Source: Escherichia phage vB_EcoM_HZ_ZJUN4
Length of the DNA stretch: 64,000 bases
Sequence record: PP216085
Strand: one strand, 5' to 3'
The notes below the pieces were generated by a model. The model was not told the origin of the DNA. It ran no database searches and saw only the letters and a list, made by a program, of their open reading frames with translations. This document shows, one piece after another, positions 4,472 to 21,118 of the stretch (its first letter is position 1; each line of letters starts with the position of its first letter). The position numbers were made by a program, and so were the translations under genes.

Positions 4472-4765
4472 CTATTTAATGAATACTTTAGATGATGCCT
4501 GAGCCACAGTATCACCGCATGATATTGGATCAGCCATTTGAACAGCTTTCTTTCCAGTGACATATACCTTAGAAGTTCTAGGTTGTGTCACTCCGCCATG
4601 TGTTTCATATGGCTTTTTAATTTCTGTATGCTCTGTAATTGGATCACCTGCTACGAGAACAGCAATTCCTCCAGTGAATACTTTACTTTGTGTAGCATTC
4701 ACAACTGTTGGAGGCCATGCTTCATGGCCAGCAGTAACACACTTATCATAACTTAATCCTGACAT
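4472..4765 (-). CDS. 5.4: PAAR-type spike-tip protein gp5.4 (97 aa)
   Basis: 97-aa ORF immediately downstream of gene 5 cluster; size and Cys/His-containing sequence match T4 gp5.4. Confidence 0.88.
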
Positions 4766-5322
4766 TATTGCCTCTCATATACGTAGCTTCTCAATTTATT
4801 AGCCCAACGGCTCCAATTTCCAACTATAGTTTTTGTGTAATTTTTAACAAGAGTTTTTCTTATTGGAGCAGGAGGATCGGTTGGTTCAGTAGTATCAGAA
4901 GATGACCTAGAATTACTGCCAGAACCTCCAGATTCACTTTGTTCTTGGTAGTCATATATTAATGTTACTTCGTAAGTGAATGTCTTCTGAAGGTTTTGAG
5001 GAGCTTTCCATAGATATAACTGAGTATTAGAATCAGTTGGAAGGTCTTCCCACGAAGCAGCAGTTTTAAATTCATCATCTAAACGATATTTCAATGCGTC
5101 ATTTCCAAATCCAAACACAGATTCATACGTTCCATATAAACGATTTTCTTCTACTGAAACTCCAGGAGTTTCATCGTAACTAGTTATATTTATAGATACT
5201 AACGTTTCACCCGTTTCTAATTGAGCGGTAAAGGTGACGTCGATAGAAGAACCTTCCATGGATTCTCCTAAATCAGCGCTCATTGGAAGTATATTAGCCA
5301 ATGTCAATCCTCGATCCATCAA
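4765..5322 (-). CDS. conserved hypothetical protein in gp5.1 position (185 aa)
   Basis: 185-aa ORF between genes 5 and 5.4, overlapping the end of gene 5; acidic Ser/Gly-rich C-terminus; identity to T4 5.1 assumed from position only. Confidence 0.65.
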
Positions 5323-7021
5323 TTGTGTATTGACCAGATGAAATAGAACTCATAGATGCCATTTTTTCTGTCCAATCACCACCAACGTCCCAATCAACTG
5401 TCCCAGCAACTTTCCAAGAAAGATTTCCATTTACTGTATTAGTTTGATTTCCTTCAACTAAAGTAGTAGCATCCCCTTTAACTGTAATGTCAGCATTACC
5501 TTCAACTACAATAGTAACATTACCTTTTACTAGGATAGTTCCATTACCTTCAACTGTCTTAGTTTCATCGCCACGTACAAATATTGTATTGCTTCCATCT
5601 ATTTGATGGAGACGATTATCCATGTTGTAATAAATTTCTGATCCACCGACGTTAGTCTTTTTATCGCCAGCTACCAAAAAATTACCATCAGCATTTGTTA
5701 TATCATACAAATTATCAACAGTTTTTCTTGTTCTTCTTCCTGACGGTGATACTTCCTCATATGTTCCAGTCGGATGAACTAATCTGTATCGTTCTTGTCC
5801 CGGGGTATCGTCAAATTCCTGAATATGACCGCTTTCAGTTTCCATTGTATGAACATACGGATATTCACCTTTATATGAAGAAACAGGTTCTTTAAATAAA
5901 ATTCTCGAATCATTCGGAATAGGAGGGTCAGCTGGATCAGAAGACTTTGCTACAGCAGCAGCCATTGCTGACAAAGACCTAGCCGGTGTTTTCACTTCAA
6001 TACCGTATGATTCCAAATTACCTGTAAGAATAATCATGGTAACACGGGATGCACGGCCTTTTGTTTGTTGATACCACAATGAATCACGACCAGCTTTATA
6101 TGCTTTTTCCCAATCTCCGGCTAACATAGCTGTTAACATTGTGTTAAATTTAGCTACACCGCCAACACCCATCTGAAATGCCATATTTTCTAATGCCATT
6201 TGACGAGAACGATTAACTGCTTTCCAAACTGGGCCAACTTTAGAATGTGATTTAATGTCACGTTGCATATCAGCTAAATCACGTTCAAATAAAGTTACCG
6301 CTTCTTCCATTGTAATAGAACCTGGATTTCCGGTAATTTCACGACCAACTTGTTTTGATAAAACTTTATTAATTTGGGCCATATCACGAACTGGCTGCTT
6401 CATGATAAGATGACCAATACCAATTGTCGGATATCCTTCAGTATCCCAATAAACTTTTAGTCTTAATCCTTCATCACGGCGAAGCATTTCAGCCATTGAC
6501 ATATTTGGATTATCATCAGTTGGAATCTCTGATAGCGGTCTATCATCGGGATTTATCGCAGTGTCTAGATTACTATCTTGGATAATATTAGAAGACGAAT
6601 CATATCCTACTTCTCCGCCTTGGTTTAATACGTTAGTATCATTTCCTAGACGTCTAGGATACTGACCAGTTGGGTCAGAAAATCCTTCAAGTCTATTAGG
6701 TTTTTCGCGAACTATTCCACCATACGTTCCAAGGACAATTCCGTTAGTTTTCCATTTGTCTAAAAAATGACCATATACTCTAGTTCCTTCTACTGGCCCT
6801 GTAACAGAACCTCCAATTCCAGACATTGCTGCAGAAGTTATAGGTTGAATAACTGACATCCATGGTAATTTATCAGTTGGAATACCCATTACATCGCCTT
6901 GCGCTCTTTGAGGTGGATGCAGACCAACTACACGAACACGAACACGACCTAATTTTAATGGGTCCATTCTATCTTCAACAACACCAACAAACCAATTGAG
7001 GTTATTACTTATCATTTCCAT
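5294..7021 (-). CDS. 5: baseplate hub / cell-puncturing protein gp5 with internal lysozyme domain (575 aa)
   Basis: 575-aa ORF; central region resembles T4 lysozyme (EGLRLKVYWDTEGYPTIGIGHL); C-terminal VxGxxxxx beta-helix repeats. Confidence 0.94.
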   Translation of the reverse strand: MEMISNNLNWFVGVVEDRMDPLKLGRVRVRVVGLHPPQRAQGDVMGIPTDKLPWMSVIQPITSAAMSGIGGSVTGPVEGTRVYGHFLDKWKTNGIVLGTYGGIVREKPNRLEGFSDPTGQYPRRLGNDTNVLNQGGEVGYDSSSNIIQDSNLDTAINPDDRPLSEIPTDDNPNMSMAEMLRRDEGLRLKVYWDTEGYPTIGIGHLIMKQPVRDMAQINKVLSKQVGREITGNPGSITMEEAVTLFERDLADMQRDIKSHSKVGPVWKAVNRSRQMALENMAFQMGVGGVAKFNTMLTAMLAGDWEKAYKAGRDSLWYQQTKGRASRVTMIILTGNLESYGIEVKTPARSLSAMAAAVAKSSDPADPPIPNDSRILFKEPVSSYKGEYPYVHTMETESGHIQEFDDTPGQERYRLVHPTGTYEEVSPSGRRTRKTVDNLYDITNADGNFLVAGDKKTNVGGSEIYYNMDNRLHQIDGSNTIFVRGDETKTVEGNGTILVKGNVTIVVEGNADITVKGDATTLVEGNQTNTVNGNLSWKVAGTVDWDVGGDWTEKMASMSSISSGQYTIDGSRIDIG

Positions 7022-12404: not shown

Positions 12405-12477
12405 TGGGAATTAGCCAAGTTGGTAAGGCACTGGATTTTGATTCCAGGATGCAAAGGTTCGAGTCCTTTATTCCCAG
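12405..12477 (+). tRNA. tRNA-Gln (anticodon UUG)
   Basis: Cloverleaf: acceptor TGGGAAT/ATTCCCA, anticodon loop TTTTGAT, T-arm GGTTCGAGTCC. Confidence 0.85.
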
Positions 12478-12478
12478 C

Positions 12479-12565
12479 GCGAGAATGGTCAAATTGGTAA
12501 AGGCACAGCACTTAAAATGCTGCGGAATGATTTCCTTGTGGGTTCGAGTCCCACTTCTCGCACCA
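12479..12565 (+). tRNA. tRNA-Leu (anticodon UAA), type II
   Basis: Acceptor GCGAGAA/TTCTCGC, anticodon loop CTTAAAA, long variable arm, encoded CCA. Confidence 0.85.
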
Positions 12566-12570
12566 AATTT

Positions 12571-12644
<74 letters not shown>

Positions 12645-12654
12645 ATTTAATTTA

Positions 12655-12728
12655 CTCCGTGTAGCTCAGTTTGGTAGAGCGCCTGATTTGGGATCAGGAG
12701 GTCCAAGGTTCAAATCCTTGTATGGAGA
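12655..12728 (+). tRNA. tRNA-Pro (anticodon UGG)
   Basis: D-arm GCTCAGTTTGGTAGAGC, anticodon arm CCTGA-TTTGGGA-TCAGG, T-arm CAAGGTTCAAATCCTTG. Confidence 0.8.
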
Positions 12729-12730
12729 CT

Positions 12731-12820
12731 GGAGGCGTGGCAGAGTGGTTTAATGCACCGGTCTTGAAAACCGGCAGTCGCTCCGGCGACTCATAGGTTC
12801 AAATCCTATCGCCTCCGCCA
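12731..12820 (+). tRNA. tRNA-Ser (anticodon UGA), type II
   Basis: Acceptor GGAGGCG/CGCCTCC, anticodon loop CTTGAAA, long variable arm, CCA. Confidence 0.85.
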
Positions 12821-12825
12821 GTTTT

Positions 12826-12901
12826 GCTGATTTAGCTCAGTAGGTAGAGCAACTCACTTGTAATGAGAAGGTCGGCGGTTCGATTCCGTCAATCAGCACC
12901 A
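12826..12901 (+). tRNA. tRNA-Thr (anticodon UGU)
   Basis: Acceptor GCTGATT/AATCAGC, anticodon loop CTTGTAA, T-arm GGCGGTTCGATTCCGTC, CCA. Confidence 0.85.
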
Positions 12902-12902
12902 A

Positions 12903-12977
12903 GGCCCTGTAGCTGGAAGGTTCAAGCAAGCGACTCATAATCGCCAGATGGTGGTTCAATTCCACCCAGGGCCACCA
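12903..12977 (+). tRNA. tRNA-Ile (anticodon CAU, probably lysidine-modified) or tRNA-Met
   Basis: Acceptor GGCCCTG/CAGGGCC, anticodon loop CTCATAA; T4 tRNA-Ile is known to use CAU. Confidence 0.8.
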
Positions 12978-12990
12978 AATTAAGAATTAA

Positions 12991-13077
12991 GGGGAGTTAT
13001 CCCGTAGAGGTAGCGGTGTGGACTGTAAATCCATTGTCATTGCGACTCGGGTGGTTCGACTCCATCACTCCCCACCA
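12991..13077 (+). tRNA. tRNA-Tyr-like (anticodon GUA), type II
   Basis: Acceptor GGGGAGT/ACTCCCC, anticodon arm GTGGA-CTGTAAA-TCCAT, long variable arm resembling bacterial tRNA-Tyr; D-stem only 3 bp. Confidence 0.7.
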
Positions 13078-13081
13078 ATTT

Positions 13082-13156
13082 GGATGTGTAGCTCAATGGC
13101 AGAGCGATCGCCTGTTAAGCGATTGGTTATAGGTTCGAATCCTATCACGTCCGCCA
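13082..13156 (+). tRNA. tRNA-Asn (anticodon GUU)
   Basis: Acceptor GGATGTG/CACGTCC (one G-U), anticodon arm ATCGC-CTGTTAA-GCGAT, T-arm TAGGTTCGAATCCTA, CCA. Confidence 0.8.
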
Positions 13157-13160
13157 AATC

Positions 13161-13236
13161 CGAGGCATAGCTCAGAAGGAAGAGCAAGGACCTTCTAAGT
13201 CCTAGGTCGTAGGTTCGATCCCTACTGCCTCGACCA
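13161..13236 (+). tRNA. tRNA-Arg (anticodon UCU)
   Basis: Acceptor CGAGGCA/TGCCTCG, anticodon arm AGGAC-CTTCTAA-GTCCT, T-arm GTAGGTTCGATCCCTAC, CCA. Confidence 0.8.
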
Positions 13237-13252: not shown

Positions 13253-13603
13253 ATGAAAGGTAATGTTTATTTAGTAGTTCATGATTTAACATTCTATTTT
13301 AATCACAATGACACTGTTATTTCTGAACGTGTAATTAATTTACTTTATCAGCATGCAGATTATGTTTATGTCGAAAACGAATACGGTCATTGGCAATTTC
13401 TCAAAAATCGTTCATTTGGTTTAGATGGTTACGAATACTTTGAACGTAAAGACCTTTTAGATAAAATTCCGTTATCTACACAATATCAAAATCATAAGTC
13501 TTTATATAAATGCCGTCCAATTCGAAATGCTGAATCTGCGTATGAAGTAATTGATTTATGGCGTAAACGTCGTGGACAGGTTGATGCTTTAAAAGAATAC
13601 TAA
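13253..13603 (+). CDS. hypothetical protein (116 aa)
   Basis: ORF with GTGAGGAAAA ribosome-binding site directly after the tRNA array. Confidence 0.6.
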   Translation: MKGNVYLVVHDLTFYFNHNDTVISERVINLLYQHADYVYVENEYGHWQFLKNRSFGLDGYEYFERKDLLDKIPLSTQYQNHKSLYKCRPIRNAESAYEVIDLWRKRRGQVDALKEY

Positions 13604-17551: not shown

Positions 17552-17895
17552 ATAAAGTCAAATATTCGCTTCCTGAGTCATTTTTAATTTTTGCTGTGGC
17601 GTTGGCTGCAGCTCTTGCGGGTAGTCTTTTTGGATTGTTAATTGACTGTCTTATTTTAAACATCGATGGCACAGTAAATATAATAGAAGTTTGGAGTGAA
17701 CTTCGCTATACTAAAATTATTTCATTATTTTCATTCTTTTGTATCATTCTATATTTTCATTATGATAATTTTAAAATAAATTGGCAAAGAAAAAAGGATT
17801 ACAAAATACAATTAAAAGAATATAATAGCTACATGTCTTATATTGAAAATGAATCAATGAAAGAGTTTGTGATTGATTGCAGGAAATTAAAATGA
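17533..17895 (+). CDS. membrane protein (120 aa)
   Basis: ATG with AAGGA ribosome-binding site; two hydrophobic helices. Confidence 0.55.
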   Translation: MQRPKLNKVKYSLPESFLIFAVALAAALAGSLFGLLIDCLILNIDGTVNIIEVWSELRYTKIISLFSFFCIILYFHYDNFKINWQRKKDYKIQLKEYNSYMSYIENESMKEFVIDCRKLK

Positions 17896-18332
17896 AAACA
17901 TTATCAGCTGGTATTATCTTTATGACAGAAGATAAAGATTTATTCATGGGACGGGTTACCGGTTCTCGTAAGTCTGGAATGATGGCCCATCGCTGGGATA
18001 TTCCAAAGGGCCGTGTAGAAAATTCTGATTTAAGCGCACTAGAGGCAGCACGAAGAGAGTGTTTAGAAGAGACTGGCTTTAGCAATTATAATCCAGACCT
18101 TCTAGAAGACCTAGGTGTATTTAAATATTCTAGTAATAAAGACTTACAGTTATTTTATTATACGATTCCAGTAGAGCATGAGATGTTTAGAAATTGCCAC
18201 TGCGAGTCTTATTTTGAAAATAAAGATGGCGTTATGATTCCAGAGATGGACGCTTTTGCTCTTATTCCTCGTACTCAGTGGCAATATGTGATGGGTCCTT
18301 CACTTTACCGAATAATGAACAACCTCTTTTAA
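17892..18332 (+). CDS. nudE: Nudix hydrolase NudE (146 aa)
   Basis: Nudix box GRVENSDLSALEAARRECLEETGF; located immediately upstream of e as in T4 (e.1). Confidence 0.85.
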   Translation: MKTLSAGIIFMTEDKDLFMGRVTGSRKSGMMAHRWDIPKGRVENSDLSALEAARRECLEETGFSNYNPDLLEDLGVFKYSSNKDLQLFYYTIPVEHEMFRNCHCESYFENKDGVMIPEMDAFALIPRTQWQYVMGPSLYRIMNNLF

Positions 18333-18863
<531 letters not shown>

Positions 18864-18897: not shown

Positions 18898-18934
18898 ATT
18901 CATAGTTACTAATTAAAATATTTAAAGGAACCAT

Positions 18935-19252
18935 ATGAAAACGTTTAAAGAATTTATTGCAGAATCTGCCCAAGGACAACGTGTAGAAGGCGGTTATATC
19001 TGGATTGAACAAGTTGAGCCGCCAAGTCGCACTTCTACAGGTAAATGGAAAATCACTGTTGATGGTCCTGGTGGTAAACGTAGGACTCTTAAAGAAATTA
19101 ACGGGTACTATGAAGAAGCTCTTTCTGACGCGGGTACTTATATGATGCAAATCATGATTAAAAACCCAGAAAATCGTTTTGCGGCTAGAGTTTTCCGCCG
19201 TATTGGAAATAAGCTTTATGATGCATATTCTAAAAACTTCCCTAAAGAATAA
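18935..19252 (+). CDS. capsid-targeted internal protein (ipIII/ipII position, 105 aa)
   Basis: N-terminus MKTFKEFIAE (capsid targeting sequence plus IAE protease site); located after e as the ip genes are in T4. Confidence 0.7.
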   Translation: MKTFKEFIAESAQGQRVEGGYIWIEQVEPPSRTSTGKWKITVDGPGGKRRTLKEINGYYEEALSDAGTYMMQIMIKNPENRFAARVFRRIGNKLYDAYSKNFPKE

Positions 19253-19268
19253 AAATTAAAGGATACAC

Positions 19269-19742
19269 ATGAAAACATATCAAGAATTTATTACTGAAGC
19301 AGCTATTAATTCTCAAATTATTGCTGAATCTTTTACTGATCTTTTGAAATTTAAAAAAGGACAGAAAATCACTGCTGTATTGGATGATGGTACAGAAGTT
19401 GAGATGGATGTACAGGGATATAATTATGCAGTAGATGGAAAACTGTATAATAAATCTCATGCTAAATTTGATTCATTTGACGACTTTGTTAATACAGTTG
19501 AAGATGAAAAAACTCGTCGATCCATTGCAACTGGTGATGCTAAGGTTCTTATGGCACATGGTCATGAACGCATTCGCGCTAAACAGAATAAAATGGGTGA
19601 AGATAATTTTGCATTAGTTGGTTATCAATCTGGTAAGCAAACTTATGGCTATCAGCGTACTGCTACCATGTATAATAAAAATGGTAAAATCGCTTTCGTG
19701 AATAGTAAAGGTTCTATTCAGTACGTTAAATCGTTCAAATAA
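19269..19742 (+). CDS. capsid-targeted internal protein (ipII/ipIII position, 157 aa)
   Basis: N-terminus MKTYQEFITEAAINSQIIAE with two protease sites. Confidence 0.7.
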   Translation: MKTYQEFITEAAINSQIIAESFTDLLKFKKGQKITAVLDDGTEVEMDVQGYNYAVDGKLYNKSHAKFDSFDDFVNTVEDEKTRRSIATGDAKVLMAHGHERIRAKQNKMGEDNFALVGYQSGKQTYGYQRTATMYNKNGKIAFVNSKGSIQYVKSFK

Positions 19743-19882
19743 TATGGGAACAACCTGGACCTCATGATTCTGTGAGGGATTCCCGCCAACCTGTAATAAG
19801 GTCGAGCCCAAGTGCGGTAATGGGTAAATACAGAAATGGACAATTCATGCGCCACGGAATGGCCCAAATTTAGAGAGAAGAA

Positions 19883-20422
19883 ATGAGAACATTTTTAACT
19901 GGTCCTTATCTATCCCTGATGAATGCTTTTACACACCATTCTGATGCTAGAGTAGAAGAAATTTGTAAAAACGAATATATCCCGCCATTTGAAGACTTAC
20001 TTAAACAGTACTGCACACTTCGACTAGATGGTGGACGTCAATCCGGTAAATCAACTGCAATAACTAATTTTGCCGCTAATTGGTTATATGATGGTGGAAC
20101 AGTTATTGTTCTTTCTAATACTTCAGCTTACGCTAAAATTTCTGCGGGCCACATTAAAAAAGAATTTTCTCGTTATTCTAGCGATGATATTCGATTCCGC
20201 TTATTTACCGATTCTGTCCGTAGTTTTATCGGTAATAAAGGAAGCAAGTTCAGAGGTTTATCGCTTTCGCGGATTTTGTATATAATCGATGAGCCTGTTA
20301 AATCTCCTGATATGGATAAGATTTATAGTGTCCATATTGACACTGTACACTGCTGCTGTAATATTAAATGTTGTATTGGTGGTATTACTCGTCCACAGTT
20401 TTTCGTAATCGGAATGCAATGA
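19883..20422 (+). CDS. small P-loop NTPase-like protein (179 aa)
   Basis: Walker A DGGRQSGKST and Walker B-like ILYIIDEP; Cys cluster HCCCNIKCC at C-terminus. Confidence 0.6.
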   Translation: MRTFLTGPYLSLMNAFTHHSDARVEEICKNEYIPPFEDLLKQYCTLRLDGGRQSGKSTAITNFAANWLYDGGTVIVLSNTSAYAKISAGHIKKEFSRYSSDDIRFRLFTDSVRSFIGNKGSKFRGLSLSRILYIIDEPVKSPDMDKIYSVHIDTVHCCCNIKCCIGGITRPQFFVIGMQ

Positions 20423-20748
20423 TGACAGACACTCAGCTTTTCGAATATCTTTATTTTTCGCCAAAAACTATTAAAAATAAATTGGTGAATCATTTTGAAA
20501 TTTTGGCAAATAACAACGTCTTGAGCGAATTTTATCCTAAGCAATACAAATTACAAAAAGGTGTATTCAAAGGATGCAGAGTTTTGTGCACTGCTCCTAA
20601 TGAAAGATTAATGAATAAAATTCCATATTTTACCATGGAATTTATTGATGGACCTTTTAAAGGACTAATCACCCAAAGTTTAATGGCATATGATTCTGAG
20701 CCATTTTTAATTAAAGAACAATCTTGGATAAATTTATTTTCTAATTGA
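20419..20748 (+). CDS. hypothetical protein, start overlapping the P-loop gene stop (109 aa)
   Basis: ATGATG overlapping the upstream TGA stop. Confidence 0.55.
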
Positions 20749-20755
20749 GGTTTAT

Positions 20756-21118
20756 ATGAAAGCATATCAAATTCTTGAAGGCACACATAAAGGTACTATT
20801 TATTTTGAAGACGGTATTCAAGCACGAATTATTGTTTCTAAAACCTTTAAAGAGGACTCTTTTGTAGACCCAGAAATTTTCTATGGTTTGCATGCCCGTG
20901 AAATTGAAATTGAAACACAACCTACAGTTAAAATCGAGGGTGGTCAACACCTGAACGTTAACGTTCTGCGTCGTGAAACTCTGGAAGATGCAGTTAAGCA
21001 TCCGGAAAAATATCCGCAACTGACCATCCGTGTATCCGGTTATGCAGTTCGCTTTAACTCTCTGACTCCGGAACAGCAGCGCGACGTTATCGCTCGTACC
21101 TTTACTGAGAGCCTATAA
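20756..21118 (+). CDS. GrcA/YfiD-like autonomous glycyl-radical cofactor (120 aa)
   Basis: C-terminus ...[28 protein letters not shown] carries the RVSGY glycyl-radical signature and closely resembles the PflB C-terminus / E. coli GrcA. Confidence 0.85.

Follow-up and report, generated by a model that had tools for sequence, protein, structure and literature searches.

The subject of this analysis is a 140-nucleotide (nt) gap in Escherichia phage vB_EcoM_HZ_ZJUN4 (record PP216085), together with the genes vs.8 and vs.7 that follow it. We worked with a 64-kb stretch of this DNA, called the window below; coordinates are window positions on the + strand. The locus is the early region of a Tequatrovirus (T-even phage), read from the + strand (Table 1). 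An initial annotation had taken the gap for a non-coding scar at the place that the pyrimidine-dimer glycosylase gene denV occupies in T4, and vs.8 and vs.7 for genes that had replaced it. Both genes are standard T4 genes, and the interesting part is the spacer. Very probably the locus is the ordinary junction of internal-protein (ip) genes and vs block in a denV-less, T2-type T-even phage, with a conserved structured RNA in the gap.

Table 1. Positions of the genes and RNA features at the locus
Feature	Position	Strand	Remarks
Transfer RNA (tRNA) array	12405-13236		ARAGORN, 10 genes
nudE	17877-18332	+	
Lysozyme gene e	18369-18863	+	
First internal-protein gene, ip10-like	18935-19252	+	
ipIV-like internal virion protein gene	19269-19742	+	157 amino acids (aa); Pfam DUF7412 5.7e-96; phrog_3155 'internal virion protein'; PP01 orthologue annotated ipIV
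Gap	19743-19882		140 nt, from ipIV-like stop to next conserved open reading frame (ORF) start (19883)
Structured RNA core (predicted)	19746-19834	+	P1, P2, P3, P4 and pseudoknot
P1	19746-50/19780-84	+	GGGAA/UUCCC in the window; encloses an internal loop and hairpin P2
Pseudoknot	19754-57/19831-34	+	CCUG (P1 internal loop) with CAGA (3' of P3)
P2	19760-64/19773-77	+	
33-codon GTG ORF	19772-19873	+	On the RNA element, in the vs.8 frame; closed by TAG 19871-19873
P3	19785-88/19821 and 19823-25	+	GCCA/U[G]GGU, invariant bulged G at 19822
Nearly invariant core	19789-19822	+	ACCUGUAAUAAGGU-CGAGCCCAAGUGCGGUAA-U-G: P4 hairpin, 18-nt single-stranded segment, bulged G
P4	19789-92/19799-802	+	Invariant hairpin ACCU-GUAAUA-AGGU, enclosed by P3
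3' extension	19835-19865	+	T4-like phages only; hairpin GCCA-CGGAA-UGGC (19851-19863)
vs.8 orthologue	19883-20422	+	179 aa
vs.7 orthologue	20419-20748	+	109 aa
vs.6, GrcA/YfiD-like autonomous glycyl-radical cofactor	20756-21118	+	Pfam Gly_radical 2.2e-18; agrees with the T4 annotation

A predicted RNA fold in the gap

The gap itself was correctly recognized in the initial annotation: the stop codon of the ipIV-like gene is 19740-19742, and 140 nt pass before another conserved ORF begins. It holds a conserved element that, judged from aligned sequences, is an RNA of the + strand with a nested double pseudoknot as its predicted fold. The fold was assessed in two alignments, one of 36 distinct sequences built by hand around the proposed structure (A4) and one of 20 natural T4-like sequences produced by plain MAFFT and left unfitted (A7). 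In A4, 95% of cells form standard pairs and 17 of the 22 pairs have changed on both sides, with compensatory changes in four of the five helices (P1, P2, P3 and the pseudoknot). Its covariation score of 0.636 compares with 0.161 +/- 0.013 in shuffled alignments, none of 500 reaching the observed value, and with at most 0.14 when the partners were slid. The unfitted alignment gave the same picture at a lower level (0.239 against 0.063 in shuffles, 0 of 500 reaching it; slid controls no higher than 0.051). There, P1 occurs with GC, CG and AU pairs, P3 with UA/UG/CG/AU and CG/GC/GU, and the pseudoknot with CG/UA/AU/GC (pair 17/113) and GC/CG. G-U pairs appear on the + strand only in both alignments, and the RNA is therefore read from that strand. 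With its base pairs kept through compensatory changes in independent lineages, the element probably constitutes a new family of structured RNA.

Conservation is concentrated in the centre of the element. Across the 36 sequences, which come from at least six phage groups, 24 columns are invariant, and the core consensus ACCUGUAAYAAGGUCGAGCC-NNNGNGCGGUAA-N-G hardly varies; the invariant 18-nt strand within P3 reads CGAGCC-NNNG-N-GCGGUAA. The core pattern matches the window once, where none would be expected by chance. A covariance model (CM) of the core, R1, scores 71.8 bits at the element (E = 3e-22) and 12.9 bits at the next best site in the window. True copies elsewhere score 51-73 bits, diverged second copies of the Karamvirus type 30-43 and chance matches less than 28. 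The 3' extension is kept in all 14 T4-like sequences of a further alignment (A3) and is absent from the non-T4 families; RNAalifold places a hairpin in it, without covariation. On a plain MAFFT alignment RNAalifold returns only the invariant hairpins and a GCCC/GGGU pairing. We rejected that pairing as an alternative: it cannot form in phage Ivi or in loci L028 and L032 (loci are cited by L number), whereas P3 covaries.

Karamvirus-type loci carry two tandem, diverged copies of the element (L037, 5092-5252; L039, 9019-9180; L080, 361-522). In the second copy, P4 is GCCU/AGGC instead of ACCU/AGGU and the core reads CAGYCC-GCGR-CGGUAA.

No known RNA family accounts for the element. The 4227 models of Rfam 15 gave no match to it, whether the window was scanned with a cut-off of E = 10 or five loci, drawn from four phage groups, with one of E = 5. 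A search for tRNA and transfer-messenger RNA genes with ARAGORN placed none of the window's 10 tRNAs at 19743-19882, and no Rfam tRNA model matches the element. The T4 genes rnaC and rnaD have no sequence similarity to it. Their products, RNA C and RNA D, are phage small RNAs that travel with tRNA genes, a habit that the element shares outside the T4-like phages. It differs from them in being pseudoknotted by prediction, in occurring in several phage families and, in T4, in lying ~6 kb from the tRNA cluster. Literature searches on the element sequence, the genes vs.8 and vs.7, and T4 non-coding RNAs (ncRNAs) found no description; the element could be among the ~10,000 candidate viral RNAs catalogued in 2023. 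If expressed, the element would be a third orphan small RNA of T4 beside RNA C and RNA D.

Distribution and genomic neighbourhood

Searching phage genomes with the gap sequence (blastn) returned matches in 1116 records, and unrelated phages match its central 45 nt at 86-95% identity. These include rV5-like Vequintavirus (nimi, O157 typing phage 4, CM1 and the mislabelled "Campylobacter" phage A112b), the 44.9-kb coliphage Ivi and Karamvirus; in all three groups the element is intergenic and unannotated. Scanning IMG/VR and metagenomes for the pattern brought in Mosigvirus-like phages, Klebsiella T4-like phages and 46-48 kb contigs related to Klebsiella and Salmonella siphoviruses. Two contigs without a cultured relative, L035 and L028, also carry it and match nothing in the phage collection. 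The carriers are phages of Enterobacterales, whose myoviruses and siphoviruses have the element in common with a core identity of more than 90%, and it tends to sit with tRNA genes. No copy was found in 5,426 complete Escherichia coli genomes, and 185,579 bacterial and archaeal species genomes gave two chance matches only; a 137.6-kb record labelled as a plasmid does contain the element and is probably an rV5-like phage.

Of the 39 metagenome matches, about 11 were discarded as GC-rich coding sequence resembling a coenzyme A-transferase (...KVEPPGGN...); those that the CM reported, with E no higher than 1, stay under 15 bits. Chance GC-rich matches of the 19-base search pattern are L045, L047, L051, L054, L056, L058, L059, L065, L069, L073 and L078.

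The neighbourhood differs between T4-like phages and the other carriers. Whichever gene lies upstream in T4-like phages, the element begins 1-3 nt past its stop codon, and vs.8 nearly always follows; the exception is L016, where an ip gene takes its place. Outside this group, tRNA genes usually adjoin the element on the same strand, at distances of 36 nt to 1.2 kb. In L083 it follows four tRNAs at a distance of 36 nt, and in L061 it is inside a tRNA array. It lies ~550 nt upstream of the array in rV5-like phages, 200-400 nt upstream of tRNAs in the 46-kb contigs L030, L033, L038 and L040, and downstream of tRNAs in L032, L052 and L035. An intrinsic terminator follows the element in L035 and, as read from the sequence, in Ivi and L028. 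Ivi also has a promoter-like site before the element and another after the terminator, and in nimi a sigma-70 promoter matching 11 of 12 positions begins directly after the element. In the window, neither a promoter nor a terminator was found between the element and vs.8.

The 46-48 kb siphovirus-like contigs have a feature of their own. A long stem, GUGCYMUUWYCGUUGUGAC ... GUCACAACACACAACAGGUAAGAGCA, encloses the RNA in L033 (reverse strand, ~4540-5690), L030, L032, L038, L040, L046, L052, L070 and L081, and the element lies in a ~1.1-kb ORF-free stretch beside tRNAs. The motif of the 5' strand of the stem, GUGCUCUU(U/A)(C/U)CG..., recurs before and after the element, which suggests a string of processed RNA cassettes.

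Candidate roles of the element

We favour a folded RNA module able to stand alone over a leader dedicated to vs.8. In this phage and in T4 the element would be transcribed within the early/middle ip-vs transcript and would act as a folded RNA, not as protein and not as DNA, with its invariant unpaired core serving as a putative binding site for a partner. It could also exist as a stable or processed small RNA, and it may bind a conserved host or phage factor tied to the expression or protection of untranslated transcripts from tRNA regions. We favour such a factor-binding small RNA because the element occurs in unrelated Enterobacterales phages, usually at tRNA arrays on the same strand and in some cases as an independent unit running from promoter to terminator. 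The restriction of the element to phages of these hosts, together with a nearly identical core across unrelated families, suggests that the host or phage factor is a common one. If expressed, the element would be a candidate RNA targeting a host factor. Overall, we put at roughly 55% the probability that this is an undescribed, widespread phage RNA family, a nested double pseudoknot with a ~30-nt nearly invariant core that in T4 lies under a mis-annotated Vs.8 N-terminus, and that it has a dedicated activity, for example the binding of a conserved factor of phage or enterobacterial origin, catalysis, or the protection or antitermination of untranslated transcripts from tRNA regions. A conserved pseudoknotted RNA would then have been masked as protein by the reference annotation of the best-studied phage.

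Several observations weigh against this interpretation. Folded singly by minimum free energy, the window copy shows no stability beyond that of shuffled sequence (z = +0.42). In T4- and T2-type copies the pseudoknot comes down to CUG/CAG, three base pairs (four in L071), and P4 and the 18-nt core never vary, so that their structure is predicted only. The larger alignment was fitted by hand to the fold that it supports, and we infer the transcription, ends and stability of the RNA from sequence. The proposed tie to tRNA biology comes from gene neighbourhood only and does not extend to Ivi or L028 within the DNA available. Lastly, in T4-like phages the element is nearly always directly upstream of vs.8, as a purely cis-acting leader would be.

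That the element is such a leader, a riboswitch or protein-binding operator controlling translation or transcription of vs.8-vs.7, is unlikely, though it keeps some weight. In most of 40 T4-like loci the element precedes the vs.8 ATG by 84-125 nt (up to 207 nt where there are two copies), the uninterrupted stretch between element and vs.8 in the window would suit a leader, and the order in L035, element, intrinsic terminator, then ribosome-binding site (RBS) and gene, is the layout of an attenuating riboswitch. However, homologues of Vs.8 are restricted to T4-like phages, and the element occurs as well in rV5-like phages, siphoviruses and Ivi. What lies downstream is not one class of gene, as would be expected of a riboswitch or leader, but vs.8, an ip gene (L016), tRNAs or unrelated ORFs, depending on the family. 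New promoters follow the element in nimi and Ivi, it sits among tRNAs in L061 and L083, and conservation is lowest next to the vs.8 RBS.

That the element is a new class of self-cleaving ribozyme is improbable, and catalysis is speculative here. The fold of the hepatitis delta virus (HDV) ribozyme is a nested double pseudoknot in which P4 is dispensable; its hallmarks are a P1 that begins at the cleavage site, P1.1 and a catalytic C in J4/2. The pairs of A4 put the helix strands of the element in the same order as in HDV-like ribozymes (A, a, hairpin, A', domain, a'), and the large invariant unpaired core and the phage and tRNA-processing contexts would also suit a ribozyme. The likeness is nevertheless one of helix order only. 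Conservation falls in the domain corresponding to the dispensable P4 of HDV, not in the equivalent of L3 or J4/2, and the HDV-family, twister, pistol, hatchet and hammerhead models of Rfam 15 give no match even with the cut-off relaxed to E = 10.

We give similarly little credence to an antitermination or anti-Rho RNA that would keep RNA polymerase going processively through untranslated tRNA and ncRNA regions. It would explain why the element lies upstream of tRNA arrays, on their strand, in rV5-like phages, L030, L033, L038 and L040, and it fits the ORF-free stretch of ~1.1 kb around the element in L033. The idea is purely contextual, though: the element bears no resemblance to put or boxA, lies downstream of tRNAs in L035, L052 and L032, and is flanked by translated genes in T4-like phages.

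A site acting as DNA, in recombination, homing or replication, is very improbable. The element does border a hypervariable gene cassette (the ip genes and denV), but the compensatory changes preserve pairing, a G-U pair would be an A-C mismatch on the other strand, and the orientation is always that of the flanking genes or tRNAs.

The stretch is hardly credible as coding sequence, whether as an N-terminal extension of Vs.8, as in T4, or as a 33-aa peptide, as in T2. Relative to the window, T4 has a 9-bp insertion and hence no in-frame stop, and its open stretch of 40 codons with an ATG is annotated as residues 1-40 of a 219-aa Vs.8. The window has the 33-codon GTG ORF in the same frame, and the T2 record annotates that ORF as a gene (L084, PV648363; 1829-1930, atop the RNA element). 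Yet of 40 loci with a downstream vs.8 homologue, only three have the frame open across the element. The distance from core to vs.8 ATG ranges over 84-207 nt (84, 85, 86, 87, 89, 90, 91, 93, 94...) in steps that are not multiples of 3 and is therefore incompatible with a conserved reading frame. Compensatory substitutions run across the helices, and the same core turns up between genes in unrelated phages. The profile of the Vs.8 family (phrog_1488) spans 177 aa, and the 179-aa protein of the window, unlike the T4 annotation with its 40 codons over the RNA element, agrees with the family consensus. The T4 gene model thus appears over-extended by 40 codons (NC_000866, 64793-64912, codons 1-40), with the conserved start at Met41, ~64792, and the 33-codon ORF of the window lacks conservation and is probably not a gene. 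Two corrections would follow for the reference records: moving the T4 Vs.8 start to Met41 and removing the spurious 33-aa ORF from the T2 annotation.

Least credible of all is the scar proposed in the initial annotation, a remnant of a denV deletion: the gap does occupy the denV position and is richer in G+C than its surroundings, but it has no likeness to denV DNA or protein, is ~97% identical to the T4 sequence right after the denV stop codon, is conserved in unrelated phage families, and in T4 and L021 exists side by side with denV, the element beginning 1-3 nt past the denV stop codon.

The vs.8-vs.7 pair and the ip/denV cassette

The two ORFs after the gap are orthologues of T4 genes. The 179-aa protein is 96% identical to residues 41-219 of T4 Vs.8 (NP_049732) and falls in the Vs.8 family (phrog_1488, 7e-79, residues 3-179 against profile positions 2-177). 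The 109-aa protein is 97% identical to T4 Vs.7 (NP_049731) over 109 aa and matches the Vs.7 family over its full length (phrog_2049, 1.3e-53), its own PHROG being its sole match. Window and T4 share the order of the two genes, the vs.6-vs.1 block downstream and the 4-nt overlap, ATGA, of the vs.8 stop with the vs.7 start; the coupled 109-aa partner was thus correctly described at the outset. That the pair had replaced denV does not survive the comparison. In T4, vs.8 and vs.7 lie directly downstream of denV and coexist with it, and therefore the pair replaces nothing. The initial annotation had named two findings that together would speak against it: equivalence of the ORFs to vs.8 and vs.7, which holds, and a DenV homologue elsewhere, of which the 64-kb window contains none.

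Vs.8 is, by motifs and modelled fold, a single-domain P-loop nucleoside triphosphatase (NTPase) of the additional-strand, conserved-glutamate (ASCE)/RecA-like type, and hydrolysis is predicted only. The Walker A motif reads G50-GRQSGKS-T58 and the Walker B motif 132-LYIIDE-137; G50, K56, S57, D136 and E137 are invariant or nearly so among 17 family members, which also share the motifs YLSLMNAF (N-terminal) and FFVIGMQ (C-terminal). The Walker motifs reported initially are therefore present. So is the cysteine cluster (HCCCNIKCC, residues 156-164), but it is not conserved in the family and gives no sign of a zinc- or metal-binding site: the alignment is at its most variable around residues 157-164, where several members lack cysteine, and the predicted local distance difference test (pLDDT) score is below 50. 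The AlphaFold2 model as a whole has a pLDDT of 81.5. With it, Foldseek finds terminase-ATPase and helicase domain-1 folds at template modelling (TM) scores of 0.45-0.53, the best being the P74-26 TerL ATPase and the DSH9 helicase. The model shares the ASCE P-loop fold and both Walker motifs with TerL ATPases and domain 1 of superfamily 1 and 2 (SF1/SF2) helicases, but differs from them as a single 179-aa domain with neither a nuclease nor a second RecA domain. Every Pfam match of Vs.8 lies below its cut-off (Terminase_6N, 15.2 bits against 22), and searches of Pfam, NCBIfam, PADLOC and PDB sequences gave nothing above threshold for either Vs.8 or Vs.7. Only T4-like phages have homologues of Vs.8.

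The lack of denV reported at this position is borne out. A tblastn search with T4 DenV found no homologue at the locus or anywhere in the window (best E = 1.5), and the layout is that of T2, as had also been proposed: T2 record PV648363 has the ipIV-like gene, the same 140-nt element, vs.8, vs.7 and vs.6, with no denV here. That T2-type phages lack denV is classical knowledge. T4 has denV in the same position, between ip genes and vs.8, and the annotated order there is ipIII, ipII, denV, vs.8, vs.7, vs.6. Compared with T4, the window loses homology at the ip genes and regains it exactly at the denV stop codon. Where T4 has ipIII and ipII, the window has the ip10-like and ipIV-like genes, the latter filling the slot of ipII plus denV. 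The run of ipIV, gap and vs.8 is contiguous in at least 309 phage records, and DenV homologues are present in 1119; presence or absence of denV is therefore a common polymorphism of the ip/denV cassette. PP01 is annotated with the same run as the window (ip10, ipIV, vs.8, vs.7, vs.6). The vs block is intact, since vs.6 is present downstream of vs.7, and regB, vs.1, vs and tk.4 follow it. The nearest genome in the phage collection is ~95-96% identical to the window and mosaic. In the T2 record vs.8 is split into two coding sequences (1940-2475), which may reflect a pseudogene or a sequencing frameshift.

The tRNA array of the window also departs from that of T4, with 10 genes (Gln, Leu, Gly, Pro, Ser, Thr, Met, Tyr, Asn, Arg) against 8 and with segB absent inside it. 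A 116-aa ORF (13253-13603) separates tRNA-Arg from the start of the rnaD-like sequence, whereas rnaD directly abuts tRNA-Arg in T4. Repeats of 45 nt (18920-18964 and 19256-19300) precede both internal-protein genes and are 89-91% identical to T4 sequences upstream of ipIII and ipII; they are plausible substrates for recombination, which probably swaps the ip/denV cassette.

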